Part shown: positions 20,431 through 64,000 of the stretch, one piece after another
Layout: the number at the start of each line of letters is the position of its first letter
Position numbering within the stretch: the stretch's first letter is position 1
Source: an uncultured Acidimicrobiaceae bacterium
Lineage (GTDB): Bacteria > Actinomycetota > Acidimicrobiia > Spongiisociales > UBA5794
Length of the DNA: 64,000 bases
Direction of reading: 5' to 3'
Assembly: GCA_964416425.1 (NCBI GenBank)
Contig: CAYQEC010000002.1
Location: 102,701 to 166,700, forward strand
Made by a program: the position numbers and the translations under genes
The notes under the pieces: model-generated
Databases searched by the model: none
Told to the model about the DNA's origin: nothing
The model's input: the letters and a program-made list of their open reading frames with translations, nothing else

Positions 20431-21231
20431 TCAGACCGGGCTGGAGTGGCTGCGGATCATCCCGACCAGCTCGGCCTGGGAATGGACCTCGAGCTTGCGG
20501 AAGATCGACTTGAGGTGGTTGCGCACGGTGTGCTCGCTCACCTCGAGCCGGGATGCGATCGAGACCACTCGATGGCCCCGTAGCAGCTCGTTGACCACGT
20601 CGCGTTCCCGCCGTGACAGCCGTTCCAGCTCGGGGGCCACCGCGGCTCCCGCCACCGGCTCGGTGTTGCCCACCGCCACGCCCAGCTTGCTCAGCTCGCC
20701 GGCGATGCGGCGGATGCCGTCTTCCAACGCCTGGCGCCGGCCGTCCCCGTTGAGCCGGGGCTCCACCGGCGTCGGGCTGAAGATCCACATCAGCGCCGTC
20801 GAGTGCTCGTTACCGTTCCGCATCGGGATCAGCTTGAGTTGGGCGCTGACCTGGTTGCCGCCGACGGTGATGAGCGACCAGTCGGTCACGATCGTCTCCC
20901 GACCGAACCGTCCCCCGATCGCCCGGTTGATGTAACGCTGATAGGCGCGCTGGCAATCCTGCGGGATCCACTCCGGCGCTGTCTCCGGTGTCATCTCACC
21001 GCACGCCAGCGGCCCCACGATCTGATCGAGCGCCGGATTGGTGTACGTGCACTTGCCGTGCTCGTCGGTGATCAAGACGCCGTCGGTCATCGCTTCGAGG
21101 AGCGCTTGAAGCGGCACCACGATGGTGCCTGTTCCATTGCGGGCCGTCATGTGAGCCTCGCACGCGCACACCGATGGATGCTGCCCCAGAGCATCGTCCA
21201 CCCCCTGTGTTGCCCCACCTTGCGCGGACAT
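20431..21231 (-). CDS. PAS domain-LuxR family transcriptional regulator
   Basis: PAS-like TIVVPLQALLEAMTDGVLITDEHGKCTYTNPA...; C-terminal LSRRERDVVNELLRGHRVVSIASRLEVSEHTVRNHLKSIFRKL is a LuxR HTH. An alternative start at the internal MTARNG (~21150) is possible. Confidence 0.75.
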   Translation of the reverse strand: MSAQGGATQGVDDALGQHPSVCACEAHMTARNGTGTIVVPLQALLEAMTDGVLITDEHGKCTYTNPALDQIVGPLACGEMTPETAPEWIPQDCQRAYQRYINRAIGGRFGRETIVTDWSLITVGGNQVSAQLKLIPMRNGNEHSTALMWIFSPTPVEPRLNGDGRRQALEDGIRRIAGELSKLGVAVGNTEPVAGAAVAPELERLSRRERDVVNELLRGHRVVSIASRLEVSEHTVRNHLKSIFRKLEVHSQAELVGMIRSHSSPV

Positions 21232-22377: not shown

Positions 22378-22667
22378 TGAACGACGCCCGCACGCTCCGG
22401 TTCGTCACCAGGGACGGGTGCGGCCGGTGCGCCGAATCCCTCGCCGCGATCCGGCGGGTCGCCACCCGGCTCGCGATCCCGGTCGTGGTGGAGGACGTCG
22501 ACGCCTCTCCGGACCTCTACGAGGCCTACACCGACCGGGTCCCGGTGGTGCTCGACCGGGGCGGGGGCGTAGTGGCCGAGGGGCGCCTCACCGGCCGGCA
22601 GGCCCTGTGGACCGTGCTCGCGGCCCGGATGCGACGGGGCCGGTCGCCGGGGACGCCGCAGGTCTAG
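22378..22667 (+). CDS. glutaredoxin/thioredoxin-fold family protein (CxxC)
   Basis: ...LRFVTRDGCGRCAESLAAIRRV... has CGRC in a glutaredoxin-like context. Start uncertain (GTG ~22378). The low-complexity acidic N-terminus of ORF 22278..22667 is doubtful. Confidence 0.5.
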
Positions 22668-22699
22668 AGCCCTCCGGCGGCCACTATCCTCCGCTCTCG

Positions 22700-23320
22700 G
22701 TGAAAGGCCCGATTCCCTCTGCCACGGTGGCGCGGCTCCCGGTGTACCTGCGGTGCCTCGGCGACCTCCCCACGACGCAGCCGACCTGCTCGTCGGAGCA
22801 GCTCGCCGCGATCGCCGGCGTCAACCCGGCCCAGGTGCGCAAGGACCTGTCCCACATCGACGCCAGGGGGGTGCGCGGCGTCGGCTACGGCATCGACGAG
22901 CTGCGCCGTGAGCTGCGCCGTGCCCTCGGCCTCGTCAAGAGCTACGCGGTGGCCATCATCGGCGCCGGCAACCTCGGCACCGCCCTCTCCAACTACCCCG
23001 GGTTCGCCGGGTGGGGATTCGAAGTGAAGGCGATCTTCGACGTCGATCCCTCCAAGGTGGGGGAGGAGGCCGACGGCCTGGTGGTGGAGTCCCTGGCGGA
23101 TCTCGAGAAGATCGTGGCCGAGCGATCCATCTCGATCGGGATCGTGGCGACGCCGGCCCATGCCGCCCAGGACGTCGCCGACCGGCTGACGCGGGCCGGG
23201 GTGCGCTCGATCCTCAACTTCGCCCCCGCCATCCTGCGCCGGGTCGACGGCGTCGAGGTGCGGCGGGTCGATCTCTCCACCGAGCTGCAGATCCTGGCCT
23301 ATCACCTGCAGCGCGACTGA
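22700..23320 (+). CDS. rex: redox-sensing transcriptional repressor Rex (NADH/NAD+ sensor)
   Basis: VKGPIPSATVARLPVYLRCLGDL... (winged-helix N-terminus), then Rossmann ...VAIIGAGNLGTALSNY..., C-terminal ...RRVDLSTELQILAYHL. GTG start at 22700 in frame with ORF 22418..23320. Confidence 0.8.
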   Translation: MKGPIPSATVARLPVYLRCLGDLPTTQPTCSSEQLAAIAGVNPAQVRKDLSHIDARGVRGVGYGIDELRRELRRALGLVKSYAVAIIGAGNLGTALSNYPGFAGWGFEVKAIFDVDPSKVGEEADGLVVESLADLEKIVAERSISIGIVATPAHAAQDVADRLTRAGVRSILNFAPAILRRVDGVEVRRVDLSTELQILAYHLQRD

Positions 23321-24745: not shown

Positions 24746-25270
24746 TCAGTCGCGGTCCTGTTCCTTCTCGTAGCGGTCGAGGGCCACCAGGAACATGAGG
24801 AACAGGATGAGCGACGCCACGGCCAGCCCGATGGCGGGGATCCGCATCTGGAAGGCGTTGAGGCCGGCGAGGTTGGAGGGCCGCAGCCCGCGCGGGGCGT
24901 AGACGACGAACAGCATCGAGCCCACCACCAGCCACCCGAAGACGGCGGCGCCGGTCACGAGGAAGGCGAGACGGCGCCCGAGATTGGTGGAGAGCACCAG
25001 GAAGCCGGATCCCACGAACGCCACCACCGCCACCACGGTGATGAGGATGCCCTTGGCGGCGACGGAGAACCCGGTGGGGTCGCCGGCGTCGTCGACCTGC
25101 CCGAAGACCTTCTCCCACGCATCGCCGGCGATGCTGCGCACCAGCGGGATGAAGGCCAGCACCGCCAGGACGAGCAATGTCAGCCCCAGCTTCTCGAGCG
25201 AGCTGAGCCCGCGCTCGTCCCGGACGATGGCAGCCAGGCGATCCGGCAGGCGGCGGGTGCAGCGCATCAC
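24746..25270 (-). CDS. small 4-TM membrane protein, last gene of the cytochrome b6/Rieske operon
   Basis: GTGATG start overlaps the stop of the upstream cytochrome c gene; hydrophobic. Confidence 0.5.
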   Translation of the reverse strand: MMRCTRRLPDRLAAIVRDERGLSSLEKLGLTLLVLAVLAFIPLVRSIAGDAWEKVFGQVDDAGDPTGFSVAAKGILITVVAVVAFVGSGFLVLSTNLGRRLAFLVTGAAVFGWLVVGSMLFVVYAPRGLRPSNLAGLNAFQMRIPAIGLAVASLILFLMFLVALDRYEKEQDRD

Positions 25271-26880
25271 AAGGACCGCTCGTAGGTGACGATGAGCTCG
25301 ATGTCGTCCCGGCTCAGGATCTCCCCGAACGCCGGCATGCCGCCCACGCCGCTGAGACCGTTGACCCCGTAGTGGGAATCGGCCTCGGCGCCGCGGATCA
25401 CGAAGGTGACGTGGTCCTCGACGTCGGGGAACTGGGTGATGGCCCGCCCGTCGGTGAGCGCCGGCGCCCAGGCCCCGGTCCCCGCCTCTTGCTCGAAGGC
25501 GACCCCGGCGCTGTAGCCGGCGGTGTGACAGCGGGCGCAGTAGGCGTTGAACAGACCCACGGCGCGGGTGGCGTCGGCCAGCTCGAGGCCGGTGCGGGTG
25601 GCGACCTCCTCGAAATCGACGTCCCAGGACCGATCCTGCAGCGCCTTCTCGAGGAAGGCGATTCCCTCGTTGGCGCTCTCCAGGAACCGGTCCTGCCGTT
25701 CGCTGATGACCTCGAGCTGGAGGTGGGTGGTTTCGAGCTCCTGGTAGAAGTGGTGGGCCGAGTCGAGGTCCGCCACGGGGCGGCCCCGCTCGTCGCTCAT
25801 CGTGAAGGCGTTGTCCGGCGCCAGTTCGAGAGCGAACCGGTCGCTGGTGGTGGGCACGACCTCGAGGGTACGGTTCCCGTTCTCGTCGACCGATTCCTGC
25901 ACGGCGCGGGTCGTCACCGTGTCGAACGTGATGGCGGCATCGGCGGTGAGGGCCTCTTCGGCGGCGTCGGTGAGGCCGTCACGGTCGCGGTCCGGGCCGG
26001 GATTGTCGCAGCTCGTCCCCACCAGCTCGGCCGAGGCCTCGGTGCAGGTTCCGTCGCCGGAGAGCAGGGCGGCGATCTCGTCCGGCATGTCCTGGATCGT
26101 GGCGTACTGGCTCGGGGCGTCGAGGATGTCGTCCCGCGCCGCGTTCTGCTCGACGAGCCGCTTGCCGATCGTCTCCTCGGCGTTCTCGATCCGCTGCAGC
26201 GCCAGGGAGACGGCACCTTCGATCTTGTCGAGCGCCGCGCTCTGCGGGACCTGGATGCTCTTCAGGTAGGCCACCACCTGGTCGATCTGCTGCATCGTCA
26301 TCGAGCCGCCGCCGGCGAGCCCGGCCGCCGGCATCGGGGTGCCGTGGCGGCCGTAGGTGATCCAGTGCCGCACCTCGTCTTCGGTGTAGCGGAAGAGCAC
26401 GTCGTTGATCGACGGCGCCACCCACGACGTGTCGAGGCCGGAGCGGGCCTCGATGAAGGCGGCTCCGCCGCCTCCGCCGTCGGCGCCGTGGCACACCGTG
26501 CACTCGAAGAGCTTCCACCACCGGAGGCCCTCCTCGAGGTAGTTCTCCTCGACCTGCTGGGCCGCCTCGGCCTGGCGGTGCGACTCCCCGACGAAGTAGA
26601 CGGGGAGCAGGATGGCGAGCACCGCGGCGGCGATCGCCGCCGCCGAGAGCACGTGGGTGAGGCGGGTGGTTTCCAGCGCTTCGTCGTCGTCGTAGGGGTC
26701 GAGGTTCGGCGGAGGCGTCTCGGGGGGACGCCGACGCCGCCGGCTGGTGATGACGAGAAATCCCAGACCCAGCAGTAGCACTGCGACGGCGAGGATCAGC
26801 ACCACCGATCCGAGGCCGACGTTGCTGGGCCCGGCCGGCGTGGCGGGCTCGGCGGTGGCGAGGAGGGGCAGTGGGGTCAC
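25267..26880 (-). CDS. membrane-anchored dihaem c-type cytochrome (cytochrome c subunit of the Rieske/cyt b complex)
   Basis: Two CXXCH motifs (CTVCHG, CARCHT); N-terminal TM helix; GTG start at 26880 overlaps the Rieske stop (GTGA). About 537 aa, with a 250-aa insert between the two haem domains. Confidence 0.75.
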   Translation of the reverse strand: MTPLPLLATAEPATPAGPSNVGLGSVVLILAVAVLLLGLGFLVITSRRRRRPPETPPPNLDPYDDDEALETTRLTHVLSAAAIAAAVLAILLPVYFVGESHRQAEAAQQVEENYLEEGLRWWKLFECTVCHGADGGGGGAAFIEARSGLDTSWVAPSINDVLFRYTEDEVRHWITYGRHGTPMPAAGLAGGGSMTMQQIDQVVAYLKSIQVPQSAALDKIEGAVSLALQRIENAEETIGKRLVEQNAARDDILDAPSQYATIQDMPDEIAALLSGDGTCTEASAELVGTSCDNPGPDRDRDGLTDAAEEALTADAAITFDTVTTRAVQESVDENGNRTLEVVPTTSDRFALELAPDNAFTMSDERGRPVADLDSAHHFYQELETTHLQLEVISERQDRFLESANEGIAFLEKALQDRSWDVDFEEVATRTGLELADATRAVGLFNAYCARCHTAGYSAGVAFEQEAGTGAWAPALTDGRAITQFPDVEDHVTFVIRGAEADSHYGVNGLSGVGGMPAFGEILSRDDIELIVTYERSL

Positions 26881-27752
26881 AGGCAGGAAGGTCCTTGCGG
26901 GTAGGAGGCGGTCTTGTGGTGGGCGCGGGCGGTTTGAAAGATGGTGCCCGTGTTGATGATGAGGTCCCCGGCGTCGTTGACCGCCACCTCGAAACGGTCC
27001 ATGTTGCGAGGGGCCGGGCCGGCCTCGTACTCGCCGTGGAAGTTGTACCTGGATCCGTGGCAAGGACACTCGAATCCCTGTGAGGAAGTGCACTCCGGCA
27101 CCCGGCAGCCGAGGTGGACGCAGCGTTGCCACAGGGCCATCACACCCGGTTCGACCCCGCCCCCGGCGAGCACCGGGAGGCCTTCGAAGGAGCTGTCGGG
27201 AACGTCCTTCTCGTCCATGACGACCAGCCAGGACTGGGCGGGGGGGATGAACTTGGGGATGAGGGTGCCGTCGTCCTGCACGATCTCGTCGCGGAGGGCG
27301 ACGAGGTTGCCGGCGTTGATCGGGGTGCCGAAGCCTCCCTTCAGCTTGGGCCAGAGGAAGGAGAGCATGCCCAGGCCGAGTGAGGCGAAGAACGCCCCGG
27401 CGAAGAGCCCGAGGCTTGCCCGGTTGAGGAACTTGCGGCGGGTGACCCCCATCTCGGCGGCGGAGACCGGGATGCGGGGGATGGCGGCCGCCGGCTCGTC
27501 GCCGGGAAGCGGCGCCGCCGCGGCGGGGACACTCTCGGCAGCCTCCGCTGCGGCGGCGGGAGCGTCGTCCGCGGCGGGTTCCAGGGCCACGGGCTCCGGG
27601 GCGACGTCGGGCGTGGCGTCGGCGGCGGCGGGCTCGAACTCCCCGACGACAGGCCCGGTCGGGCCGCGGCGCCACGCGACGGTGAAGACCGCCACCGCCA
27701 GCAGTGCGGCGGCCGAGATCAGGGCGATCGCAAAGATGGTGGTGGCACTCAT
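26877..27752 (-). CDS. Rieske [2Fe-2S] iron-sulfur protein of a bc/b6f-type complex
   Basis: CVHLGC...CPCHGS Rieske boxes; N-terminal TM helix; Ala/Pro-rich linker. Confidence 0.85.
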   Translation of the reverse strand: MSATTIFAIALISAAALLAVAVFTVAWRRGPTGPVVGEFEPAAADATPDVAPEPVALEPAADDAPAAAAEAAESVPAAAAPLPGDEPAAAIPRIPVSAAEMGVTRRKFLNRASLGLFAGAFFASLGLGMLSFLWPKLKGGFGTPINAGNLVALRDEIVQDDGTLIPKFIPPAQSWLVVMDEKDVPDSSFEGLPVLAGGGVEPGVMALWQRCVHLGCRVPECTSSQGFECPCHGSRYNFHGEYEAGPAPRNMDRFEVAVNDAGDLIINTGTIFQTARAHHKTASYPQGPSCL

Positions 27753-29113
27753 CAGAAGTCGAAGAAGACGCCGTCGACCCAGGGGAACGTGAAGCTGAAG
27801 CCGGGACCCCGGAAGAACGAGCCGTAGATGGTGAGCACCGCCGCCGCCATCAGGAAGAACGTGAAGAGCATGATCGCCAGCTTCCGGTCGGAGGGCCGCG
27901 ACGACGGGTTCTTGTCGAGGTAGGGGATGAGGGCGATCCCGACGAGGCCGAAGGTCGGGATGATCACACCGGCGACCTGGGGGTCGAAGTAGGAGAGCAG
28001 CTCCTGGAGGCCGAGGAAGTACCAGGGCGCCTTGGACGGGTTCGGCTGCTGGTTGAAGTTGGCGAACTCGAGCAGCGGGGCGTTGACGAACACCGAGAAG
28101 ATGATGAGGCCGGCCGTTACCACCATGAGGGCCACGAATTCGATGGCGAGCAGGTGGGGCCAGGTGTTCACCTTGTCGGTGGGCTCCTTCTTGACCTGCT
28201 GGATCGCTCCCGCCTTGACGACGGTGAGGAGGCGTTGGGTCCGTACCTCACCGGGGGGTGGTGCCGTCGCCGTCGCCACGCCCCCGGCGGGTGCGGCGGC
28301 TGCGGGGGCGGCGGGAGTGGCGGGAGCGGCCGGAGTGGCTGCGGGGGCGGGGGTCTCGGCCGGTGGGGGTGGTGCCGTCGCGGCGGGCGCCGCGGGTTCG
28401 GGGGCGGCTGCGGGGGCGGCTGTGGGGGCTCCTGCCACGCGTTGTCGGGCCTTCATGGCGCGTTCGAGGAGGGGGACGGGGACGCCGTACTGCTCGGATT
28501 CGGCGGCGAGGTCCCGTCCGGCGGCGGCGGGAGCGGCCGGAGTGGCTGCGGGGGCGGGGGTCTCGGCCGGTGGCGGTGGCGTCGGGGTCCCGGCCGGTGC
28601 CGTCGCGGCGGGCGTCGCGGGTTCCGGAACGGAGGGAGTCTCCTCGGCCCTCAGCTCGGCGAGCACCTCGCCGACGTCTCTGCCCTCGGCCATGGCCCGT
28701 GCCTCGGCAGCCCGGAGCAGGAGGTGCTCCGGGAGCTTGGACCCCTCCAGCCCGCCGGTGGCGACCTCGGGAAGCGCCCCGACGGACTCGGGTTCGGGTA
28801 CGGCCGGCGCCGACGCGGTCTCGCCCTTCATCTCGGCGAGGACCTCCTCGACGTCGCGTCCCTCGGCCTTGGCGCGGGCCTGGGCGGAGCGGCGCAGGAT
28901 GTGGTCGGGCAGCCCGGCGAGTTCCAGGTCGCCGCTGATCGTGTGGTGGACCGGCTCCTCCTCCGGGGTCGCGGCGGGCTCCTCCGGGGTCGGCGTGAGC
29001 TCAGGCGCCGCCTCGCCCTTCATCTCGGCGAGCACTTCTTCCACGTCGCGCCCTTCGGCCTTGGCGCGGGCCTCGGCGGCGCGCCGGAGCAGGTGCTCGG
29101 GAAGGTCAGCCAT
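27752..29113 (-). CDS. cytochrome b6f subunit IV-like (cytochrome b C-terminal domain) with N-terminal triple about 30-aa repeat extension
   Basis: C-terminal ...WPHLLAIEFVALMVV...PNPSKAPWYFLGLQELLSYF...PYLDKNPS... matches PetD/cyt b C-terminal domain (PEWY variant APWY). N-terminal 300 aa contain 3 copies of LPEHLLRRAAEARAKAEGRDVEEVLAEMKGE plus PA-rich linkers. Confidence 0.8.
   Translation of the reverse strand: MADLPEHLLRRAAEARAKAEGRDVEEVLAEMKGEAAPELTPTPEEPAATPEEEPVHHTISGDLELAGLPDHILRRSAQARAKAEGRDVEEVLAEMKGETASAPAVPEPESVGALPEVATGGLEGSKLPEHLLLRAAEARAMAEGRDVGEVLAELRAEETPSVPEPATPAATAPAGTPTPPPPAETPAPAATPAAPAAAGRDLAAESEQYGVPVPLLERAMKARQRVAGAPTAAPAAAPEPAAPAATAPPPPAETPAPAATPAAPATPAAPAAAAPAGGVATATAPPPGEVRTQRLLTVVKAGAIQQVKKEPTDKVNTWPHLLAIEFVALMVVTAGLIIFSVFVNAPLLEFANFNQQPNPSKAPWYFLGLQELLSYFDPQVAGVIIPTFGLVGIALIPYLDKNPSSRPSDRKLAIMLFTFFLMAAAVLTIYGSFFRGPGFSFTFPWVDGVFFDF
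28646..29113. repeat. three about 90-bp in-frame direct repeats (spaced about 190 bp) encoding the LPEHLLRRAAEARAKAEGRDVEEVLAEM module
   Basis: DNA copies at about 28646..28735, 28826..28915 and 29023..29113 (ctcggcgag[c/g]ac...ggcc[tt/at]ggc...gagcagg...). Also a duplicated gcggccggagtggctgcgggggcgggggtctcggccggtgg at about 28320 and about 28536. Confidence 0.7.
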
Positions 29114-29128: not shown

Positions 29129-29911
29129 TCACAGCGGCCCCGAGATCCCGCCGTCCTTACGCACCCGCCAGAAATGCACCGCCATGAACACGACGATGAT
29201 GAAGGGCAGGAAGAGGACATGCAGCACATACCAGCGCAGCAACGTGTCCGGGGTGATCTGCACCCCGCCGATAAGGGCGAACGACACCTGTTGACCGAAC
29301 AGGGGCGTGTACGAAGCCATGTTCGAGCCCACCGTCACCGCCCACAACGCCAGCTGATCCCAGGGCAGCAGGTACCCGGTGAAGGAGAGCAGCAGGGTGA
29401 GCAGGAGCAGGATGACCCCGACGACCCAGTTGAACTCGCGGGGCGGCTTGTAGGCGCCGTGGTAGAAGACCCGGGCCATGTGGAGGAACACGGTCAGCAC
29501 CATGAGGTGGGCTCCCCACCGGTGGATGTTCCGCACCAGCTGGCCGAAGGCGACGTCGGTCGAGAGCGCCTGCACGTCCGTGAAAGCCGCCGGCGACGTC
29601 GGGTGGTAATAGAACATGAGGAAGATGCCCGTGATGGTGAGGAGGATGAAGAGGAAGAAGCTCAACCCTCCGAGGCACAGCGTGTAGGAGAGACGCACCG
29701 CGTGCCGCTTCACCTTCACCGGGTGGAGGTGGTAGAGCACGTTGTTCATGATCACGTAGGAGCGGTTGCGGGGGGAATCGGAGTAGCCGTGGCGGAACGG
29801 CGAGCCGGGACGGAAGATGCTCGACCACGCCTGGCTGGAGCGAACGTGCTCCCCGGCGTTGGCGAGCCGTTCCCGCAGCCCCACCTTCCCGCTTCCGTTT
29901 CCGTTTGCCAC
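29129..29911 (-). CDS. cytochrome b6 (cytochrome b N-terminal, haem-binding domain)
   Basis: 260 aa; four conserved His in helices B and D (...[23 protein letters not shown]..., ...[28 protein letters not shown]), typical of PetB. Confidence 0.85.
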
Positions 29912-29962: not shown

Positions 29963-30409
29963 CTACCAGCGCATCCCGTACATGTACCCGTTCTTGAAGT
30001 CCCGCTGCCCCGAGTCGTACTCCCAGGGAGCGTCGTCGTACCGGCCGGCCTCGTCCGCCACCGATCCGGCGAATTTGCCGAGGGTGATCACGCCGGTCGG
30101 GCACCGATCGATGCAGAGGGCGCAGCGGGTGCAGGCGTCCTCGTCGACGAGGAAGAAGCCACGGTTCTCCGGCTTGTCGCCCGGATCGGAGACGTTGGTG
30201 GCATCGGTGATGGCGTCGAGCGAGAGGTAGTGGATGCACTTCCAGGGGCAGATGTCGACGCATCCCTCACAGAGGATGCACTCCGACTGGTCGATGTGCA
30301 GGAACTGCTTCGGCTTGACCGCACTCTGCAGGAATGAGCCGTCGACCTCAGTGAGCTCGTAGTCGTCCCGGGTCGGCACCAGGTCGGTCCACACGTCGGA
30401 CTTCGCCAC
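29963..30409 (-). CDS. 2x[4Fe-4S] ferredoxin-domain protein in the cyt b6 operon
   Basis: CILCEGCVDICP and CTRCALCIDRCP motifs; GTG start with GGGAGG RBS. Confidence 0.75.
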   Translation of the reverse strand: MAKSDVWTDLVPTRDDYELTEVDGSFLQSAVKPKQFLHIDQSECILCEGCVDICPWKCIHYLSLDAITDATNVSDPGDKPENRGFFLVDEDACTRCALCIDRCPTGVITLGKFAGSVADEAGRYDDAPWEYDSGQRDFKNGYMYGMRW

Positions 30410-30412
30410 CGG

Positions 30413-31021
30413 CTACCTCCCTTCCCTGCGCAACGGGCGCCCGTAGGCGGACACCGGCTCCGGGACGGGGGTGGGGACGGTGGGCTCCCGGGCCGCCCTG
30501 CCCTGCCAGCGCACCATGGTGAAGGCGACGGCCGCGAGGGCTCCGGCGGCGTAGCCCCCCGACACCATGTCCTTGAGGGCGGCGAACGAGATCGAGACCT
30601 CGTTGCCGAGCACGAGCCAGCTCGGGATGGTGAAGGCGATCTTCTGCGGCGTCCACTCCCACTGGGCCTGGGTCAGGGTCAGCCACTGATTGGGGACGAT
30701 GCCGAACATGATGATCATCAGCGCGGCGAACAGCGCCGCGCCCAAGGCGGCGCGGGCCCAGGTCATCTGCCGCTGGTAGAGGAAAGCGAGGGCCGTGCCT
30801 CCGATCGCCAGTACGACGCCGCCGACCGAGACGATCTGACCCAGCAGCGACCATAGCCAACCGCGCGGAATCGAGGGGTAGATGTCCCGTCCCAGGTTGT
30901 CGGTGACGGGCAGGGCGGTGAAGTGGGCCCACAGGGCGCCGAGCACCGCGGCGCTCACGCCGGCCATCATGGCGGCGAGGCCCAACCTCAGGTATCGCTT
31001 GTGCGTCTCGGTCTGCAGCAT
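30413..31021 (-). CDS. hypothetical 4-5 TM membrane protein, first gene of the cyt b6 operon
   Basis: MLQTETHKRYLRLGLAAMMAG... taken as start of ORF 30413..31162; the stop is 3 nt from the ferredoxin start. Confidence 0.45.
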   Translation of the reverse strand: MLQTETHKRYLRLGLAAMMAGVSAAVLGALWAHFTALPVTDNLGRDIYPSIPRGWLWSLLGQIVSVGGVVLAIGGTALAFLYQRQMTWARAALGAALFAALMIIMFGIVPNQWLTLTQAQWEWTPQKIAFTIPSWLVLGNEVSISFAALKDMVSGGYAAGALAAVAFTMVRWQGRAAREPTVPTPVPEPVSAYGRPLRREGR

Positions 31022-31338
31022 CGTCCTCGCTCGCCACGCCGGTCGCGTCGGCGGCATTCTAAGCAACCGAGTCTGGTGCGGTGACGGGTTCTGCGGGATG
31101 TCGCGAGGCCGATCGCGCCCGGCCGGAGCCCGCCGACCGGCCCCGGAACCGGGTGCCGGCAAGGGTGCGGGTGGCGCCGGAAGCTGCCCGACCCCGGCGC
31201 CTGCCCCGCCGGAGCGAGACCCCGGGGCCGGCGTCGCCGATCCTTCCCGAATCGTGTGTCCGGCCGCGGCCCTTTGGCTAGGCTGCCCCCGCCGCCGAGA
31301 GGTGGGGCGGCATCGGCGCAGAGGGAAGGGTGGAGGAC

Positions 31339-33271
31339 GGTGACCTCCGAGACGGCAACCGACACGGTGGGCGCCGCGGCCGAATCAGGGGCGGGGATGG
31401 CGGCGCCGCTCGTCGTCCGTCTCCACCTCGTCTGCTCGGTCGGCTTCCTCGTCGCCGGTAGCATCCTCGCCGCCCTCGCTGCCCTTCAGCTCGTGGCGCC
31501 GGACCTGCTCGGCGGCAGCCCACTCCTCGGCTACGGGCGCCTCGTTCCCGTCTCCCTCCACTTCGTCATCTACGGCTGGCTCACACTCGGGTTGCTCGGA
31601 GCCCTCTACCTGGCGGTGTCCGCCGGCGCCGGCGTCCCGCTGCGCAACCCGGGAACCGCTCGCATCGGGTTCGTGCTGCTCTCGCTGGGGTACCTCGCCG
31701 GCGGTGTCGCCATCGGCCTCGGCTTCTCGGAAGGCCGCCGCTACCTGGAGGCGCCGCTGTGGGCCGACGCCGTCACCCTGCTCGGCCTCCTGATCGCCGC
31801 CGTCGTCGTCACCCGCACCGTGGCGGCCCGGACGCGGGAGCTGGGTGTGGTGCAGTGGTACGCCGTCGCCGCCGTGTGGTGGCTGGTCCTCCTCCACATC
31901 GTGGGCAACGTTCCCGGGATCGAGGGTGTCAACGGGGCATTGCAGGCCGCCTTCTACCGCGCCGGCCTCACCGGACTCTGGCTCGCTTCCGCCGGGGTCG
32001 GAGCCGTCTACTCGCTCCTGTCCCGCCTCGGAGGCCGTCCCCGCCTCGTACCCACCCGCCTCTCCCTCATCGGGTTCTGGACCCTCGGCACGGCCTGGGC
32101 CCTCACCGGCTCCAACGAGCTCACCTACGGGCCGGTCCCGGACTGGTTCCAGACGATCGGCGTCGTGTTCTCGATCGCCCTGCTGGGGGCGGTGGCGGCG
32201 GTCATCACCGACGTCGTGATCGCGTTGCGGGGGCGCTGGGCCGCCGCCGTCGCCCATCCCTCCGCCCGGTTCCTGGTCGCAGGCCTCGCCCTCTTCGGGT
32301 TGCTGCCGGTGCTCGGCCTGCTGGAGGCGCTGCGGGCCTCCAGCGCCGTGGTCGGGCTCACCGACTGGGTCGCCGCCGTCGAGTGGGTCGGCGTGTTCGG
32401 CGCCTTCTCGCTGTGGCTCTTCGCCGTCGGCTACGACGCCCTTCCCCGGCTGCGGGGCCGCGCCGCCCCCGCCTGGCGGGCCCGGCTCCACCTCCAGGGC
32501 ACCCTGCTGGGTCTCGGTCTCGCGGTCGGCGCCATGCTGGTGGGAGCGGTGCAGGGCGGCCTCACCTGGCTCGGCGGCGCCAACTCGCAGTCGTTCGCCG
32601 CCGCCGGAGAGGGATTCCGCAACAGCCTCGAGCCGATGGCCGGGTTGCGGGTGGTGCGTTTCGCCGGCATCGCCGTCTTCGCCGTTGCCCAACTCGGCTA
32701 CCTCGGCAACGTGCTCTTCCGCCGCGCCGAGCCGATCACGGTGGAGGCCGCCGCCGACGAGGAGATCGACGAGGAGCTGGTGCTGGCGGCGCCGCCGTCG
32801 TGGAACCGGCTCCGCGCCGGCGTCGCAGGGGTGTTCGCCGTCGTGCTCCTGCTCGGCCTGGTGCTGCCGTCGCTCGACTCCGCCGACCGCAGTGCCACGG
32901 CCCTCGCCGACACCGCTCGGTACTACCCGAGCGACAGCACCGCGGCGGCCGGGCGCGAGGTGTACCTACGGGAGGGGTGCGGCTACTGCCACACCCAGCA
33001 GGTGCGGCCCATCGTCACCGACGTCGGGTTGGGGGCGGTGAGCGTGGCGGGCGACTTCGCCTCCGAGTCACCCGTCCTGCTCGGTGTCGAGCGCATCGGC
33101 CCCGACCTGATGCACGCCGGCTCGCGCAGCCCGACCAACTCCCAGACCTGGGTCGTCGGCCACCTCCAGGATCCCCGCCGGGATCGGGCCTGGTCGATCA
33201 TGCCCTCCTACGATTCGCTGTCGTCCACCGACCTGTGGGCGCTCGCCGCCTACCTCGAGTCGCAGAAGTGA
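31339..33271 (+). CDS. CcoN-like (cbb3 oxidase subunit I-like) membrane domain fused to CcoO/FixO-like monohaem cytochrome c domain; apparently ligand-deficient
   Basis: ...LQLVAPDLLGGSPLLGYGRLVPVSLHFVIYGW... and ...YGPVPDWFQTIGVVFSIALL... align with CcoN helices II and VII. C-terminal ...EGCGYCHTQQVR...ERIGPDLMHAGSR...WVVGHLQDPR...SIMPSY is a CcoO haem domain. Start uncertain (GTG ~31339 or ATG ~31394). Confidence 0.6.
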
Positions 33272-33275
33272 TCCG

Positions 33276-34367
33276 ATGAACGAATTGCTCGAACGCGTGT
33301 CGCAGGACCTCGGGGTCCCCGTCGAACTGCTGCGCCGCGCCGCCGCCGCCAGGGCGGCCGCCATGGGCGACACCGCCGAGGCGGTGGTGGGGCGCTGGGC
33401 GGGCGAGGAGCCTACGGGCGAGGAGCCTACGGGCGAGGAGCCTACGGGAGCGGAGCCGACGGGCGAGGTGCCGGCCGCCGCCTCCCCGCCGCCACAACCC
33501 GCCGCGACAGAAACGCCGGCGGAGGGGTCGGCCCCGGCCGCCGAGCCGGCGGGGCTGCCCGAACACCTGGTGCGGCGCACCGCGGCGGCTCGCGCCAAAC
33601 GGGAAGGGCGCCCCCTCGAGGAGGTGCTGGCCGAGATGGGCCTCGAAACCGGGGCTCCCCCAACCCCGGCCGCCGCGCCCACCCCGGCCGCCGCGCCCGC
33701 CCCGTCCGCCATGGAGCCGGCGCCGCCGGAGGCGTCACCGGACGCGACCCCGGCCCCCGCCGAGGAGCCTGCCGCGGCGCTCCCCGAGCCACCGGCCCCA
33801 CCCGACGACGAGCCGGCCGCCTCCCTCTTCGGTGGTTTCCCGCGCTGGCTGGCCGCCTCGTTCGTGCTGTTGCCGCTCATCGCCCTCGTCTACGCCCTCG
33901 TCTCCCCCAACGGGCCCGACTGCGGCACCTCGGGCAGGCTCGCCATCGACCCGGTCACCGGTGTCGGCCAGAACTGCGACGGCAGCGCCTTCGGGACCTC
34001 GAGCACCGACTTCTTCACCAGCGGCATGGAGCTGTTCACCGGCGCCACCTGCAACGTCTGCCACGGCGACCAGGGGCAGGGCGCGGTGGGCCCCGCCTTC
34101 GCCGGCGGGGCGGTGCTCGTCACCTTCCCGAGCGGGAGCTGCGCCGACCACGTCGAATGGGTGAGGGTCGGCACCGACGGCTGGCCCGACCCCACCTACG
34201 GCGCCACCGCCAAACCCGTCGGGGGGAGCGGCGCCAAGATGCCGGCCTTCGGAAACCAGCTCAGCGACGAGGAGCTGCGCAGCGTGGTGCTCTACGAACG
34301 GGTCGCCTTCGGGGGCGAGCCGTTGGCGGAAGCCGAGGCCGACTGCGGCCTCGTCCCCGCCGAGTGA
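33276..34367 (+). CDS. membrane-anchored monohaem cytochrome c with N-terminal repeat-module extension
   Basis: CNVCHGDQGQGAVGPAF haem motif; TM helix WLAASFVLLPLIALVYALV; N-terminal VPVELLRRAAAARAAAMG... and LPEHLVRRTAAARAKREGRPLEEVLAEMGLE repeats. Confidence 0.7.
   Translation: MNELLERVSQDLGVPVELLRRAAAARAAAMGDTAEAVVGRWAGEEPTGEEPTGEEPTGAEPTGEVPAAASPPPQPAATETPAEGSAPAAEPAGLPEHLVRRTAAARAKREGRPLEEVLAEMGLETGAPPTPAAAPTPAAAPAPSAMEPAPPEASPDATPAPAEEPAAALPEPPAPPDDEPAASLFGGFPRWLAASFVLLPLIALVYALVSPNGPDCGTSGRLAIDPVTGVGQNCDGSAFGTSSTDFFTSGMELFTGATCNVCHGDQGQGAVGPAFAGGAVLVTFPSGSCADHVEWVRVGTDGWPDPTYGATAKPVGGSGAKMPAFGNQLSDEELRSVVLYERVAFGGEPLAEAEADCGLVPAE
33406..33465 (+). repeat. 15-bp tandem repeat x4 encoding (EEPTG)n
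   Basis: ggcgaggagcctacg repeated; in frame inside the cytochrome c gene. Confidence 0.7.
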
Positions 34368-34416
34368 CCCTGGGTCCCGTCCGGCGCCGCTCCACCGCCC
34401 GGTAGCCTCTGCTCCC

Positions 34417-35682
34417 GTGAGCACCACGCCCGACGTCCTCGTGATCGGTGGCGGCCCCGCCGGCGCCGCCACCGCCTTCTGGCTTGCCCGCGCCGGGGCG
34501 TCGGTGCTCGTCGCCGAGAAGCGCGGCTACCCGCGGGAGAAGACCTGCGGCGACGGCCTTACCCCGCGGGCGATCAAGCAGCTCGCCGACATGGGCTTCG
34601 ACTTCGACCTACCCGAGCTGCACCGCATCGTCGGGCTGCGCGCCTACGTGGGGGAGCGCCGGCTGGAGATGCCGTGGCCCCGCCACACCGTCTATCCCGA
34701 CTGGGGGGCGGTGATCCGGCGCTCCGACCTCGACCTCCAGGTCGCCCGGCTCGCCGAGAAGCAGGGGGCGGTGATCCGCCAGCACACCGAGGCGGTCCCG
34801 GTGATGGAGGCCGGCCGCCTCGCCGCGGTGGAGCTGCGGACGAAGAACGGCACGGTGGGGAGCGAGGTGGAGGTGGTGCGTCCCCGTCTTGTCGCCGTCG
34901 CCGACGGCTCGCTGTCCCGCTTCGGGCGCCCCCTCGGCGTCCGGCGCCGCCGCGACTACCCGTTCGGGCTCGCCCTCCGCGGCTACTACGCCAGTCCCAA
35001 CTCCCGGGACGGGTACCTCGAGAGCCAGCTCGACATCCGGGACGGCGCCGGGCGGTCGCTTCCCGGGTACGGCTGGGTGTTCCCGCTCGGCGACGGGGAG
35101 GTCAACGTCGGCGTCGGCGTCGTCTCCACCTTCCGGGGATGGAAGGACGTCGGGACCTCTCGCCTGCTGGAGGCTTACCTCGCCTCGCTCCCCGGTCACT
35201 GGGAGATCGGTCCCGGCTCCGAGACCCGGGCACCGATCGGTGGCAAGCTGCCGATGGCGATGTCGGTGGGCCCGCGGTTCGGGGCCAACTGGGTGGCCGT
35301 GGGAGATGCCGCCGGGGCCGTCAACCCCTTCAACGGGGAGGGCATCGACTACGCCTACGAGACGGGCCGGATGGCGGCCGGCTCCCTCCTCGAGGCGCTC
35401 GCCGCCGGCGATCCCGGGGCGCTCGTCGGCTATTCGCGGGCGATCGACGCCGCCTACGCCGACTACCACCGGGTGGCCCGCCTCCTGGTGATGGCGATCG
35501 GTAACCCCCCGGTGATGCAGGCCCTGACCCGGGTAGGGATCCACTCCCGGCCCCTCATGGAATGGGCGCTCAAGGTGATGGCCAACTTGCTGGAACCCGA
35601 GGAGCGGGGGACGTCGGAGTGGGTGTACCACCTCATCGAACGCCTCGTCGCCCTCGGTCCCGACCCGCTCATCCGCCGCTGA
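34417..35682 (+). CDS. geranylgeranyl reductase family FAD-dependent oxidoreductase (MenJ-like)
   Basis: DVLVIGGGPAGAATAFWLARAGASVLVAEKR (GxGxxG FAD fold) ...KTCGDGL... is typical of geranylgeranyl reductases. Confidence 0.85.
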   Translation: MSTTPDVLVIGGGPAGAATAFWLARAGASVLVAEKRGYPREKTCGDGLTPRAIKQLADMGFDFDLPELHRIVGLRAYVGERRLEMPWPRHTVYPDWGAVIRRSDLDLQVARLAEKQGAVIRQHTEAVPVMEAGRLAAVELRTKNGTVGSEVEVVRPRLVAVADGSLSRFGRPLGVRRRRDYPFGLALRGYYASPNSRDGYLESQLDIRDGAGRSLPGYGWVFPLGDGEVNVGVGVVSTFRGWKDVGTSRLLEAYLASLPGHWEIGPGSETRAPIGGKLPMAMSVGPRFGANWVAVGDAAGAVNPFNGEGIDYAYETGRMAAGSLLEALAAGDPGALVGYSRAIDAAYADYHRVARLLVMAIGNPPVMQALTRVGIHSRPLMEWALKVMANLLEPEERGTSEWVYHLIERLVALGPDPLIRR

Positions 35683-35780
35683 GAGACCTCGATTCCGACC
35701 GCGCGTTCCTTAGCCGATGCCCCCTCGCTAGGCTCGAAACAGGTCCGGTCCGGGCCGTCCGGGAGGGCCGTTCCCGCGTT

Positions 35781-35798
35781 TTGCGAGCGGGGTCGCAA
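35781..35798. promoter_or_regulatory. Rex-operator-like inverted repeat TTGCGAGCGGGGTCGCAA upstream of nuoA
   Basis: 6-bp arms TTGCGA/TCGCAA with 6-bp spacer, 36 bp upstream of the nuoA start; resembles the Rex box TTGTGAA-n4-TTCACAA with one change per half-site. A third half-site TGCGAC lies at 35809..35814. Confidence 0.35.
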
Positions 35799-35833
35799 TT
35801 CCTAGTCTGCGACATCGGAAGGAGTCCGCCGAG

Positions 35834-36262
35834 ATGACGCTCGCTGCCTATCTGCCGGTCGCCCTGCTGTTCCTCGTCGGGGTGGGCTTCGCGGTGGTGG
35901 CACTGACGCTCTCACGGAGGATCGCTCCCCACAATCCGACCCCGGAGAAGCTGGCGCCCTACGAATGCGGCATCGTCCCGTTGCAGGAGCCGGCCGAGCG
36001 CTTCCCGGTCAAGTTCTACCTCGTTGCCATGCTGTTTGTGATCTTCGACGTCGAGCTGGTCTTCCTCTTCGCCTGGGCCGTCCGCTTCGTGGACTTCGGC
36101 TGGGCCGGTATCGGCGCCATGGCGATCTTCGTGGTGTTGCTCGCCGAGACCCTCTTCTACGTGTGGAAGCGCGGCGCCCTCGACTGGAACGTCGCCCGCC
36201 GCGACCGCTACCGCCGGGTCGTGGCCCCCGAGGGTGTGCCATCCACCCGGGAGGCTGCTTGA
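35834..36262 (+). CDS. nuoA: NADH-quinone oxidoreductase subunit A
   Basis: ...YECGI...[12 protein letters not shown]... is the conserved NuoA motif. Confidence 0.9.
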
Positions 36263-59291: not shown

Positions 59292-59675
59292 GTGCTTGAT
59301 CGGTACTTCGGGGACTACATCACCGTCGGTGTGTTCCTGGCGGTGGGTGCGCTCATCGTCGGCGGCGCGGTCCTCGCCTCGGCGATGCTCCGCCCCAACA
59401 GGCCCAACCGGTTCAAGTCCGAGGTGTACGAGTGCGGCATCGCCCCGATGGGGAGCGGCTGGAGCCAGAGTCACATCCGCTACTACATCTTCGCCCTGCT
59501 CTTCCTCGTCTTCGACGTCGAGGCGGTGTTCATCTTCCCTTGGGCGGTGCGGGTCGAGGCCTTCAGTAGCGCCGGGATGGGGGCATTCGTGCTCGTCGAG
59601 ATGATGATCTTCATCGTGATCCTGGTGCTCGGCCTCGTCTACGCGGTCCGCAAGGGAGTGCTCCGGTGGGAGTGA
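59292..59675 (+). CDS. complex I-like subunit A paralog (NuoA2)
   Basis: ...YECGI...[12 protein letters not shown]...; clearly paralogous to nuoA at 35834. Confidence 0.85.
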
Positions 59676-60163
59676 TCGAGAAGTTCGGCGCCCCCAAACC
59701 GCTCTCCTGGCTGCTCAACTGGTCACGCAAATACTCGCTGTGGTTCTTCAACTTCGGGCTCGCCTGCTGCGCCATCGAGGTGATGGCGGCGGCCGGACCC
59801 CGCTACGACTTCATGCGCTTCGGCGTCATCCCGCTTCCGGCGTCACCCCGCCAGGCCGACCTCATGGTGGTGGCAGGGACCCTCACTGACAAGATGGCGC
59901 CCGCCGTCAAGCGTCTCTACGACCAGATGCCCGACCCCAAGTACGTCATCTCGATGGGGTCGTGTGCCAACTGCGGCGGACCGTACTGGGACTCCTACTC
60001 GGTCACCAAGGGCGTCGACCAGGTCATCCCGGTCGACGTCTACGTACCCGGCTGCCCGCCGCGGCCCGAGGCGCTGATGGAGGGGATCCTGCTGCTGCAG
60101 GAGCAGATCACCCACGAGGATGTGCGGCGGAAGTGGAGCGAGCGTGACCCCCAGCCCGTCTGA
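59666..60163 (+). CDS. complex I-like subunit B paralog (NuoB2)
   Basis: [10 protein letters not shown]...GSCANCGG...PGCPP. Confidence 0.85.
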
Positions 60164-63970: not shown

Positions 63971-64000
63971 GGTCGCCGGCTCGGCCCTCCCGCTCCCGAC

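Follow-up and report, generated by a model that had tools for sequence, protein, structure and literature searches.

What does a protein do that bears the name of a terminal oxidase and none of the residues that hold its metals? The question is posed by a gene near the middle of the window (the whole 64-kb stretch of DNA analysed), whose product joins a CcoN-like membrane domain to a CcoO-like haem c domain. An earlier note took it for a non-catalytic, oxidase-like scaffold carrying a CcoO-type cytochrome, a view that holds up under profile alignment and structure prediction, against a positive control, and across more than 70 relatives surveyed. The answer favoured here, with reasonable though far from complete confidence, is that the protein descends from a fused CcoN-CcoO that has died as an enzyme, and that the CcoN relic is now the scaffold for a haem c relay between a quinol:cytochrome c oxidoreductase and a separate terminal oxidase.

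The earlier note found the right open reading frame, and its placement at 31339-33271 misses the start by one base. From its first GTG the frame spans 31256..33271 (+) and encodes 671 aa. Database homologues share a later start, a GTG at 31340 with GGAGG immediately 5' of it; the resulting 643-aa product is 100% identical to a database protein (P0001). A scan of positions 30900-35900 found neither promoters nor terminators. The gene and its two main parts are as follows:

31340..33271 (+): fused pseudo-CcoN / CcoO-like gene, 643 aa (ORF, homologue-matched N-terminus, Pfam COX1 and FixO)
31340..32749 (+): CcoN-like 12-helix domain, residues 1 to about 470, lacking ligands for haem and copper (profile, AlphaFold2, Foldseek)
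32898..33268 (+): CcoO/FixO-type monohaem cytochrome c domain (Pfam FixO, PDB CcoO chains)

The membrane domain and its ligand positions

Similarity to CcoN is far above chance, and the absence of such similarity, which would have refuted the earlier note, can be ruled out. Pfam COX1 matches residues 53-441 of the 671-aa frame (1e-28; 100.9 bits against a cut-off of 34.8), phmmer finds Pseudomonas stutzeri CcoN (3mk7_A) at 4.9e-27, and a profile of the family aligns with the full length of the same chain (E=4.6e-54). NorB chains are far weaker in the family-profile search (4xyd_A, 5.9e-12; 3o0r_B, 7.5e-4). The AlphaFold2 model (pTM 0.88) has 12 helices in this part, and its best Foldseek matches are CcoN chains (3mk7_A and 9g6b_A; TM 0.85-0.87, rmsd 2.4 Å, about 455 columns). 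The domain thus has the 12-helix fold of haem-copper oxidase (HCO) subunit I.

Curated models tell how far the protein has moved. COX1, a broad model, is the only subunit I model that it passes; it scores 116.3 bits against the TIGR00780 (CcoN) cut-off of 583.15. The best NCBIfam match is PRK14485, fused CcoNO (5.4e-60, model positions 14-633 of 716), again below the cut-off (203.4 bits against 1080). A single polypeptide that holds a CcoN domain, an anchor helix, and a CcoO domain is nevertheless the architecture of PRK14485, so the fusion, which the earlier note did not recognise as described, is known from real cbb3 oxidases. The unusual feature is that every ligand has been lost, not that CcoN and CcoO are joined.

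The residue roles in P. stutzeri CcoN are those that we take to hold for 3MK7; their only check in this analysis is the all-His pattern that real sequences show. Single-sequence and profile alignments agree on the equivalent codons:

31553..31555 (+): S72, at CcoN H60 (low-spin haem b ligand)
31559..31561 (+): H74, at CcoN N62 (the helix-II His of the earlier note)
31961..31963 (+): A208, at CcoN H207 (CuB ligand)
32096..32098 (+): W253, at CcoN Y251 (cross-linked Tyr)
32114..32119 (+): N259-E260, at CcoN H257-H258 (CuB ligands)
32378..32386 (+): V347-E348-W349, at CcoN H345-V346-H347 (haem b3 and haem b ligands)

Every one of the six His ligands is lost (0/6 kept), and the cross-linking Tyr is replaced as well. 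The replacements read by eye in the earlier note (A/V, SN, and AVEWVG) hold up at A208, N259, V347, and W349, and profile alignment finds no conserved His at the CuB, haem b3, or low-spin haem sites; the presence of such His would have overturned it. One of its claims falls: that the helix-II His alone is retained. In both kinds of alignment H74 lies two residues off the ligand position, and among 51 full-length relatives that position holds His in 17, Asn in 11, and Asp in 11. This His was rejected as a surviving haem ligand, which leaves the CcoN-like domain without any candidate.

The loss is a property of the whole family. More than 60 Acidimicrobiia relatives lack His at the six positions, barring a few sporadic single His. 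The residue equivalent to H60 is Ala in 39/51 relatives and that equivalent to Y251 is Trp in most; otherwise the replacements at the former metal sites differ widely. Neither the low-spin haem b pair (H60, H347) nor the haem b3 ligand (H345) is present, all three positions varying across the family, and the three CuB His (H207, H257, H258) and the Tyr are missing. The pattern of an NO reductase (cNOR NorB or qNOR: haem ligands, plus three His and Glu for FeB) is not met either, the His being absent. Residues that bind Ca and propionate or line the channels, and that real CcoN conserves, are also gone: R57, E122, T215, Y317, and R437.

An alignment artefact was considered and rejected. In a common alignment, real fused CcoNO from Bacteriovoracaceae and Planctomycetes (loci L068-L078), which share the single-polypeptide architecture, show H,H,Y,H,H,H,H, that is, 7/7 catalytic residues; independent pairwise local alignments concur. 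With the ligands for haem b, haem b3, and CuB gone together with the cross-linking Tyr, the protein is inferred, from its sequence and without activity data, to reduce neither O2 nor NO. (Cofactor ligation by residues other than His cannot be excluded by such reasoning, and the predicted model does not reveal the state of the former haem pockets, which could be filled, hold lipid or quinone, or stand empty.)

Precedents within the superfamily are partial. A survey found the active-site His completely conserved in every family except gNOR, where one is changed (PMC11214002). The target resembles gNOR in belonging to an HCO family with replaced active-site His; however, gNOR has a single His->Asp change and is thought still to be catalytic, whereas here all are replaced and the replacements are unconserved. 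In qNOR, as here, subunits I and II are fused and one part lacks its cofactor (PMC11214002), but the case is the reverse: the cytochrome c-like part of qNOR lost its haem while the catalytic part works. The present protein would be an HCO homologue without any metal site, yet conserved and selected.

The haem c domain and its neighbours

Three features make up the rest of the protein:

32801..32884 (+): 13th transmembrane helix, residues 488-515, equivalent to the CcoO membrane anchor (AlphaFold2 helix; profile alignment)
32978..32992 (+): CGYCH haem c attachment motif, residues 547-551 (invariant in the family)
33200..33202 (+): M621 in SIMPSY, the expected sixth haem c ligand (Met in 98% of relatives)

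Here the earlier description of an intact CcoO/FixO-type domain is upheld, down to its motifs EGCGYCHTQQ, RIGPDL, WVVGHL, and SIMPSY. Pfam FixO (PF02433) matches residues 560-660 of the 671-aa frame (3.4e-23; 82.7 bits against 29.6). PDB CcoO chains are found at about 1e-13 with the single sequence and about 5e-23 with the profile (4.9e-23 to 3mk7_B), and in 6xkw_o the profile alignment begins at the N-terminal helix of CcoO. The TIGR00781 (CcoO) score is low (75.9 against a cut-off of 200.65) because the match is limited to model positions 45-143 of 232. C547, C550, and H551 of the CxxCH are invariant (100% of relatives), and the Met of MPSY is present in 98%.

Order and parts therefore resemble the cbb3 core (3MK7; 9G6B, 8SMR, 6XKW): a 12-helix subunit I fold, a single anchor helix, and a class-I haem c domain with CxxCH and Met. 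Motifs of the outer face are retained too (GR at the start of helix II, E125, PDW, and TDW). The target departs from that core in lacking its haem b, haem b3, and CuB ligands, its cross-linking Tyr, and its Ca/propionate and proton-path residues. It departs also in its company: the gene partners are those of a Rieske/b6 operon rather than oxidase accessory genes, and no CcoP, CcoQ, or CcoGHIS is among the annotated ORFs nearby. Haem binding itself is inferred from motifs only. If haem is bound, it can no longer provide entry into an oxidase, as the "electron-entry" cytochrome of the earlier note would have done, and must hand its electrons elsewhere.

The genes on either side, where the earlier note had placed a cytochrome b6/Rieske operon in divergent orientation and, after the target gene, a membrane cytochrome c, bear out that description by Pfam annotation:

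24746..25270 (-): 174-aa conserved protein, last gene of the operon (conserved position)
25267..26880 (-): membrane-anchored dihaem cytochrome c, 537 aa (CxxCH at 26488-26502 and 25525-25539)
26877..27752 (-): Rieske [2Fe-2S] protein (Pfam Rieske; NCBIfam PetC-like)
27752..29113 (-): subunit IV, the C-terminal part of cytochrome b, with a long cytoplasmic N-terminal extension (Pfam Cytochrom_B_C)
29012-29107, 28820-28915, 28643-28738 (-): 32-aa motif, three copies in the subunit IV extension (motif matches)
29129..29911 (-): cytochrome b6-type protein, the N-terminal part of a split cytochrome b (Pfam Cytochrome_B, 8e-49)
29963..30409 (-): 2x[4Fe-4S] ferredoxin-like protein without signal sequence (Pfam Fer4 families; conserved position)
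30413..31021 (-): 202-aa conserved membrane protein, TM202, first gene of the divergent operon (conserved position)
33276..34367 (+): membrane-anchored monohaem cytochrome c, 363 aa (Pfam Cytochrome_CBB3/Cytochrom_C; CNVCH at 34050-34064)
33312..33407 (+): cytoplasmic 32-aa motif, copy 1, in that cytochrome c (motif HMM, 2.5e-13)
33552..33647 (+): cytoplasmic 32-aa motif, copy 2, in the same protein (motif HMM, 5.3e-16)
34417..35682 (+): geranylgeranyl-reductase family flavoprotein, MenJ-like (GG-red-SF 224 bits, above cut-off; MenJ 279, below)

The b6-type protein, with CLGG at residue 79, scores 308 bits against NCBIfam ExtP and 218 against cytochrome b6, and the GTG start of the dihaem cytochrome c overlaps the Rieske stop. 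The 202-aa and 174-aa proteins and the 32-aa motif have no Pfam or NCBIfam match.

This order recurs in essentially all related loci with enough flank: p174, dihaem cytochrome c, Rieske, subunit IV, cytochrome b6, ferredoxin, and TM202 on one strand, and divergently pseudo-CcoN(O) followed by cytochrome c. The latter gene, only 4 nt beyond the pseudo-CcoN stop in the window, follows in nearly all of them, and the MenJ-like gene often comes after it. The loci of real CcoNO, by contrast, have none of the Rieske/b6 operon neighbours. The 32-aa cytoplasmic motif occurs only in subunit IV, in the downstream cytochrome c, and at the N-terminus of unfused CcoO-like proteins; being common to subunit IV and the cytochromes, it ties those subunits together. 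(That the downstream cytochrome c is a relic of CcoP is speculation: it has the operon position, a ccoP match of 1.5e-5 that is far below the cut-off, and E=0.73 to 3mk7_C.)

A six-frame search of the window with a CcoN profile (hmmsearch) returned the target only and no other C-family oxidase or NOR homologue. Neither COX1 nor COX2 is among the annotated ORFs of the window, and ccoP, ccoQ, and ccoGHIS are missing from its Pfam-annotated ORFs and from the flanks of related loci; the remainder of the genome lay outside the analysis. Real COX2-COX1 genes lie 3-4 kb downstream in one Acidimicrobiaceae metagenome-assembled genome (MAG), and directly follow an unfused pseudo-CcoN at another locus (L082). 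Among about 45 Acidimicrobiia loci whose flanks are long enough, an A-type oxidase is nearby in just 1, which, with its absence from the window, counts against a relay to such an oxidase.

Relatives in two phyla

The phylogenetic distribution had been named as a check in the earlier note: the pseudo-CcoN family is present in at least 119 species-level genomes, nearly all Acidimicrobiia, with the reading frame intact at 31-86% identity. An unfused form, with CcoN and CcoO as separate proteins, occurs as well. This is a family and not a decaying gene. It is under purifying selection: dN/dS in the CcoN-like part (0.23-0.26) does not exceed that in the haem domain (0.29-0.35). Strongly conserved positions are enriched on the outer (P) side, where CcoO sits (18/165 against 10/281 elsewhere; Fisher p=0.004); real CcoN is conserved evenly, without that bias.

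A second ligand-less clade (0/6 His) is found in the Chthoniobacterales, of the Verrucomicrobiota. Its CcoN is 50% identical to a full-ligand CcoN, whose own top matches are labelled Verrucomicrobiota, and only 29% identical to the target. On these identities, read together with a rough NJ tree (identity-based distances, not used alone), the clade is of independent origin. The two clades do not share their replacement residues, and some Verrucomicrobial members have Met at positions 345/347.

In all three contigs examined, the Chthoniobacterales gene follows ActC/D/E/F, genes of Alternative Complex III (ACIII), and precedes a FixO cytochrome; the longest (L088) continues with cytochrome c, COX2, COX1, CtaA, and CtaB. 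The trio thus has the same components as the target locus: a CcoN with 0/6 His, an intact CcoO-type cytochrome, and then a monohaem cytochrome c, all adjoining a quinol:cytochrome c oxidoreductase. It differs in being unfused, in having ACIII rather than Rieske/b6 as its partner, and in the aa3 genes that directly follow in L088. That the loss occurred twice, independently and in the same genomic setting, suggests a general route by which a supercomplex enzyme becomes the structural and electron-relay subunit of that supercomplex.

No description of a ligand-less CcoN, nor of the Chthoniobacterales trio, was found in open-access papers and bioRxiv (the former by full-text search). All source annotations encountered read "cbb3-type cytochrome c oxidase subunit I" or "I/II". 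Given the lost ligands and the constant adjacency to a quinol-oxidising complex, that oxidase label is almost certainly wrong. Since it is applied uniformly, reconstructions of high-affinity, low-oxygen respiration that use ccoN or ccoNO as markers will credit Acidimicrobiia and some Verrucomicrobiota with an oxidase that is probably absent. Acidimicrobiia MAGs have been credited with caa3 and cbb3 oxidases (PMC8357290), although identity of the latter with the pseudo-CcoN family is not established.

What the module may do

Real cbb3 oxidases dock on bc1 through CcoN, CcoO, and CcoP (PMC10556555). In the bc1-cbb3 supercomplexes of P. aeruginosa (8SMR) and R. capsulatus (6XKW), these subunits meet the Rieske protein and cytochrome b in what is proposed to be an ancestral arrangement; there, unlike here, cbb3 is a working terminal oxidase. 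The present module looks like a remnant of such an ancestral complex III-cbb3 assembly, in which the oxidase chemistry was dropped and the cytochrome and its scaffold were kept.

The target organism belongs to a group that is usually regarded as single-membrane and as lacking a periplasm in which soluble carriers could move; electron transfer would then require a fixed relay. The CcoN relic would hold the CcoO cytochrome in position as its platform in the membrane, probably docking onto the b6-type complex, and the single haem c would serve as the fixed relay. Electrons might then pass from menaquinol to the Rieske centre, the dihaem cytochrome c, and the CcoO-like haem c, and from there, by way of the membrane cytochrome c that follows, to a distinct A-type terminal oxidase. 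Gene order and conservation are the sole basis for inferring this role; there is no evidence of physical association. A single helix would suffice to anchor a cytochrome c, which speaks against a scaffold, and the keeping of 12 helices under selection could mean a function beyond anchoring.

Such a function is the most durable of the alternatives, although it remains unlikely: the membrane domain may have gained an activity of its own that the haem c feeds or senses, for example as a quinol- or lipid-binding site where the haems once sat, a path for ions or protons, or a sensor. Purifying selection on the 12 helices is as strong as on the haem domain, and the dead CcoN is retained even where it is not fused to its CcoO, which then is a separate protein. 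Conservation confined to the pseudo family is seen at a few residues (among them D291 and R297, where helix 8 ends on the cytoplasmic side, and P139/P192 in outer loops), and the small residues at the former H60 and H207 positions (Ala, Ser, or Gly) could leave cavities. The membrane core, however, has no conserved polar chain across it (5/114 core positions are at least 90% conserved), residues at the former metal sites differ widely from relative to relative, and the two independent clades have no replacement residues in common.

Improbable, and more so, is a role limited to the transient assembly or stabilisation of c-type cytochromes or the b6-type complex, as neither a permanent subunit nor an electron carrier. 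A variant arrangement in some relatives has the cytochrome c maturation genes ResA-ResB-CcsA directly upstream, and cbb3 operons offer a precedent in CcoQ, which acts only in assembly (PMC10556555). Yet it is not obvious why an assembly factor would need an invariant CxxCH and Met ligand of its own, the dedicated downstream cytochrome c has no obvious place beside it, and a stoichiometric-looking arrangement with structural genes is conserved across two phyla.

That the gene is a decaying cbb3 remnant without present function fits its lost catalytic residues and its scores far under the CcoN and CcoNO cut-offs; it is already contradicted by the intact frame, the dN/dS of about 0.24, the invariant haem c motifs, the strict synteny, and the same state maintained independently in Verrucomicrobiota. 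Least credible of all is a working oxidase or NO reductase with moved or non-His ligands: Tyr has migrated between helices in the C family (PMC11214002) and Met occurs at 345/347 as noted, but the CcoN-like domain has no invariant His, Cys, or Lys (only two His exceed 50%, both at cytoplasmic helix ends), one relative (P0074) has a single His in 499 residues, the sites vary rather than share one alternative ligand, and the annotated window ORFs include no ccoP, ccoQ, or ccoGHIS.

The scaffold and relay reading can be extended, as a conjecture that is put forward tentatively and may well prove wrong. Cofactor-less CcoN relics with a live CcoO cytochrome may constitute an unrecognised class of respiratory adaptor, which couples quinol:cytochrome c oxidoreductases (b6-type Rieske in Acidimicrobiia, ACIII in Chthoniobacterales) physically and electronically to A-type oxidases. 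At least two separate origins would be involved, each by the stripping of cbb3 chemistry with docking surfaces kept, and the 32-aa motif would be part of the same assembly system.

Protein searches named no isolate as a carrier, and the 80 loci listed by a genome scan come only from MAGs. A split cytochrome b has been reported in Ilumatobacter coccineum YM16-304, a candidate cultured carrier (PMC4122944).

Ligand positions of the CcoN-like domain

The open reading frame spans 31256 to 33271 on the plus strand. Homologues, including the identical 643-residue protein P0001, start at a GTG at 31340. Relatives share the N-terminal sequence MTSETATD, and GGAGG lies immediately 5' of this GTG. The gene is therefore taken as 31340 to 33271. 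Its third codon positions are 92% G+C, as in real genes of this window (about 70% G+C overall).

An earlier note placed a gene here with CcoN- and CcoO-type homology, and both points hold. Pfam models match the 671-residue reading frame at residues 53-441 (COX1, 1e-28) and 560-660 (FixO, 3.4e-23). In phmmer searches the protein matches P. stutzeri CcoN (3mk7_A, 4.9e-27) and CcoO chains (about 1e-13); a profile search with 38 relatives finds CcoN over its full length (4.6e-54), CcoO (about 5e-23) and, much more weakly, NorB (5.9e-12). Scores against curated NCBI models lie far under the cut-offs: 116 versus 583 for ccoN, and 203 versus 1080 for fused CcoNO. In the AlphaFold2 model (pTM 0.88, mean pLDDT 79.7), twelve helices are followed by a linker on the cytoplasmic side, helix 13 (488-515) and a small domain on the outer face. 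The model's top Foldseek matches are cbb3 CcoN chains (target-normalised TM 0.85-0.87, rmsd 2.4 Å, about 455 columns). HMMER and AlphaFold/Foldseek alignment, the check that the note had proposed, thus confirms a CcoN fold and, with the ligand positions scored, the absence of the histidines.

Ligands were mapped onto residues 5-471 of P. stutzeri CcoN, rebuilt from HMMER output. Single-sequence, profile and MAFFT alignments all agree.

CcoN residues, with the roles we take them to have in 3MK7, and their counterparts in the target protein
H60 (haem b): S72
H207 (CuB): A208
Y251 (cross-link): W253
H257 (CuB): N259
H258 (CuB): E260
H345 (haem b3): V347
H347 (haem b): W349

Loss of the CuB, haem b3 and second haem b histidines had been noticed by eye, and A208, N259, E260, V347 and W349 bear it out. 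The helix-II histidine, read then as a surviving ligand, is not one: H74 pairs with CcoN N62, two residues past H60. Of 51 full-length relatives, 17 have His at the H74 position, 11 have Asn and 11 have Asp; 39 have Ala at the true H60 position; and no histidine is invariant in the CcoN-like domain. Only H29 and H384, both at cytoplasmic helix ends, exceed 50% His. Also lost are R57, E122, T215, Y317 and R437, each of which is conserved to 90% or more in real CcoN. The fused CcoNO proteins that the same scan found in Bacteriovoracaceae and Planctomycetes served as a positive control; at the seven positions of this alignment they give H,H,Y,H,H,H,H.

The C-terminal domain is intact, as first proposed: C547, C550 and H551 are invariant among relatives, and M621 is present in 98%. 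By sequence, the protein meets the criteria for a FixO-type cytochrome domain, and misses every chemical criterion for CcoN, fused CcoNO and NOR. We infer with high confidence that it is not an oxidase. The proposal of a non-catalytic scaffold joined to a cytochrome agrees with these data: the fold is retained, the CcoN-like domain has no metal-binding residues, and the haem c motifs are complete. The quinol-dependent enzyme qNOR is the mirror image, its cytochrome part having lost haem while its catalytic part works. A family with none of the histidines is outside the classification of Murali et al., and we class this one as a pseudo-enzyme within the haem-copper oxidase superfamily.

Distribution and constraint

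A scan that took one genome for each GTDB species yielded 119 encoded relatives. Among the 80 listed, almost all come from metagenome-assembled genomes labelled Acidimicrobiia, Acidimicrobiaceae or Actinomycetota (31-86% identity), supplying the phylogenetic distribution that the first reading had lacked; the remaining few (24-27% identity) are real CcoNO proteins of other phyla, with all catalytic residues. Comparison with the three closest relatives gives dN/dS values of 0.23-0.26 in the CcoN-like part and 0.29-0.35 in the haem domain, with dS uncertain owing to strong codon bias. Even so, the ligand-less domain is constrained at least as strongly as the haem domain, and the gene belongs to a family under purifying selection rather than being a wreck. 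Strongly conserved membrane-domain positions are enriched on the outer side (18/165, versus 10/281 elsewhere; Fisher p=0.004), whereas conservation in real CcoN is even, core included. In cbb3 oxidases, CcoO is located on the outer face.

The architecture had not been recognised as one already described. This stands for the ligand-less CcoN, of which no description was found in open-access papers and preprints (earlier mention elsewhere is not excluded), but not for the fusion, which also occurs in real cbb3 oxidases (NCBIfam PRK14485). In a divergent Acidimicrobiia subgroup (loci L062-L067, L071, L072, L075, L079 and L081), a separate 484-residue ligand-less CcoN gene precedes a separate CcoO-like gene; fusion is therefore not the defining feature.

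All source annotations seen name these proteins cbb3 oxidase subunits. Metagenome-assembled genomes of Acidimicrobiia are reported to have cbb3 oxidases (PMC8357290); if those assignments derive from this family, there is no basis for the high-affinity oxygen respiration inferred from them.

Neighbouring genes and a proposed role

Annotation confirms that the gene is divergent from a cytochrome b6/Rieske operon.

Genes of the divergent operon
minus strand: 202-residue membrane protein, no family match
29963-30409, minus strand: cytoplasmic 2x[4Fe-4S] ferredoxin-like protein
29129-29911, minus strand: cytochrome b6, CLGG at residue 79
minus strand: subunit IV, long N-terminal extension
minus strand: Rieske protein
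minus strand: membrane dihaem cytochrome c, 537 residues
minus strand: 174-residue protein after the dihaem cytochrome c, no family match

We take CLGG to be the motif that carries the haem c_i cysteine in b6-type cytochromes. The cytochrome b6 gene exceeds the NCBIfam equivalog cut-off for "ExtP, selenite/tellurite reduction operon b-type cytochrome" (308 versus 290 bits), so automatic naming as ExtP is expected despite the respiratory setting. The ferredoxin-like protein is unusual for a bc or b6 complex.

The membrane cytochrome c noted downstream is also present: it has 363 residues, begins 4 bases past the stop, and has a cytoplasmic region at its N-terminus, a single helix and one CxxCH. 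Next come a MenJ-like gene of the geranylgeranyl-reductase family (34417-35682, plus strand) and nuoA onwards. The MenJ-like gene lies between the cytochrome genes and nuoA in most related loci; its presence there suggests that this chain uses a partly saturated menaquinone. With window proteins as phmmer queries against all reading frames of the fetched loci, the gene order recurs in virtually all Acidimicrobiia loci whose flanks are long enough; real CcoNO loci lack all of these neighbours. ResA-ResB-CcsA lie between the two operons in L083. In the window, no further C-family oxidase or NOR homologue can be detected, and its annotated reading frames include no cco accessory genes.

Gene order and the homologous loci L003 and L083 suggest that the nuo operon, from 35834, is complete. 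A further complex I-like operon (59292-64000, plus strand) reads NuoB-C-D-H-(gap)-J, with no E, F or G genes between D and H, and is possibly a version with a non-NADH (ferredoxin-type) donor. A Rex-like redox-sensing regulator (Put_DNA-bind_N plus CoA_binding; 22418-23320, plus strand), found at the same place in L003, and a PAS-LuxR regulator (20431-21231, minus strand) are encoded a few kb before the respiratory cluster.

A 32-residue motif without a Pfam match (rough consensus GVPExLVxRSAxARAxAxGxxxxEVLxxW), cytoplasmic by topology, connects the module's cytochromes with a b6-complex subunit through its distribution. Three copies occur in the subunit IV extension (28643-29107, minus strand) and two in the downstream cytochrome c (33312-33647, plus strand). 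Across related loci, its HMM matches 54 subunit IV reading frames, 65 of the downstream cytochrome c, the N-termini of 10 unfused CcoO-like proteins and three stray others. Every unfused CcoO-like protein carries one N-terminal copy (for example, L065 11370-11500); the fused protein, in which the CcoO N-terminus is joined to helix 12, has none.

A-type oxidase genes adjoin some loci. In L037, from a metagenome-assembled Acidimicrobiaceae genome, genes for COX2 (CuA motif present) and COX1 (histidine motifs present) follow on the same strand, 3-4 kb downstream. L082 (1789-5521) reads ResB-CcsA-ligand-less CcoN-COX2-COX1, with a single histidine in the 499 residues of the unfused CcoN. The L082 COX2 has an extra cupredoxin domain, and this locus is 66% G+C.

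We favour, with some reserve, an inferred role as relay and scaffold. The CcoN relic would be retained as a base for the folding and seating of the CcoO cytochrome and, probably, as a docking surface facing the b6 complex; the haem c would be one link in a chain of membrane-bound c haems that starts at the Rieske centre and ends at a distinct A-type oxidase. In real cbb3 oxidases, CcoN, CcoO and CcoP mediate docking on bc1 (PMC10556555), so a complex III-cbb3 assembly stripped of oxidase chemistry is a plausible origin. The main rival, a membrane domain with a new function of its own, would account for the keeping of twelve helices where one would anchor a cytochrome; we consider it unlikely.

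Ligand-less CcoN in Verrucomicrobiota

The gene arrangement has a counterpart elsewhere. An exhaustive profile search found many CcoN homologues without ligands, one clade being verrucomicrobial. Pairwise alignments of P0155, P0158 and P0186 retain 0/6 ligand histidines. P0155 shares 50% identity (453 residues) with P0221, in which all ligands are kept, but only 29% with the target; total ligand loss therefore occurred at least twice. Among the best 120 matches of P0155, 75 have all six histidines and 31 have none, the named ligand-less ones being from Chthoniobacterales, where the annotations seen name the protein cbb3 oxidase subunit I. By these sequence relationships, the Chthoniobacterales form is independently derived.

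Verrucomicrobial contexts
L087, 6286-8474
L088, 1114-17307
L089, 1-7203

In all three, the ligand-less CcoN follows Alternative Complex III genes and precedes a FixO cytochrome; a further cytochrome c comes next in L088 and L089. The L088 order is ActB-ActC-ActD-ActE-ActF-small protein-ligand-less CcoN-FixO with CxxCH-cytochrome c-COX2-COX1-CtaA-CtaB. Thus, a trio of dead CcoN, live CcoO and extra cytochrome c adjoins quinol:cytochrome c oxidoreductase genes in both cases.

Other fused CcoNO-like proteins of 700-1000 residues (P0139, at L086 7001-11004; P0089; P0114; P0121; P0134; P0154; and P0159) keep the haem ligands but are without two or three CuB ligands and the tyrosine (for example, HHFQNHH). 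The P0139 gene follows an ECF sigma/FecR pair and precedes genes for a small cytochrome c and a Urate_ox_N protein.
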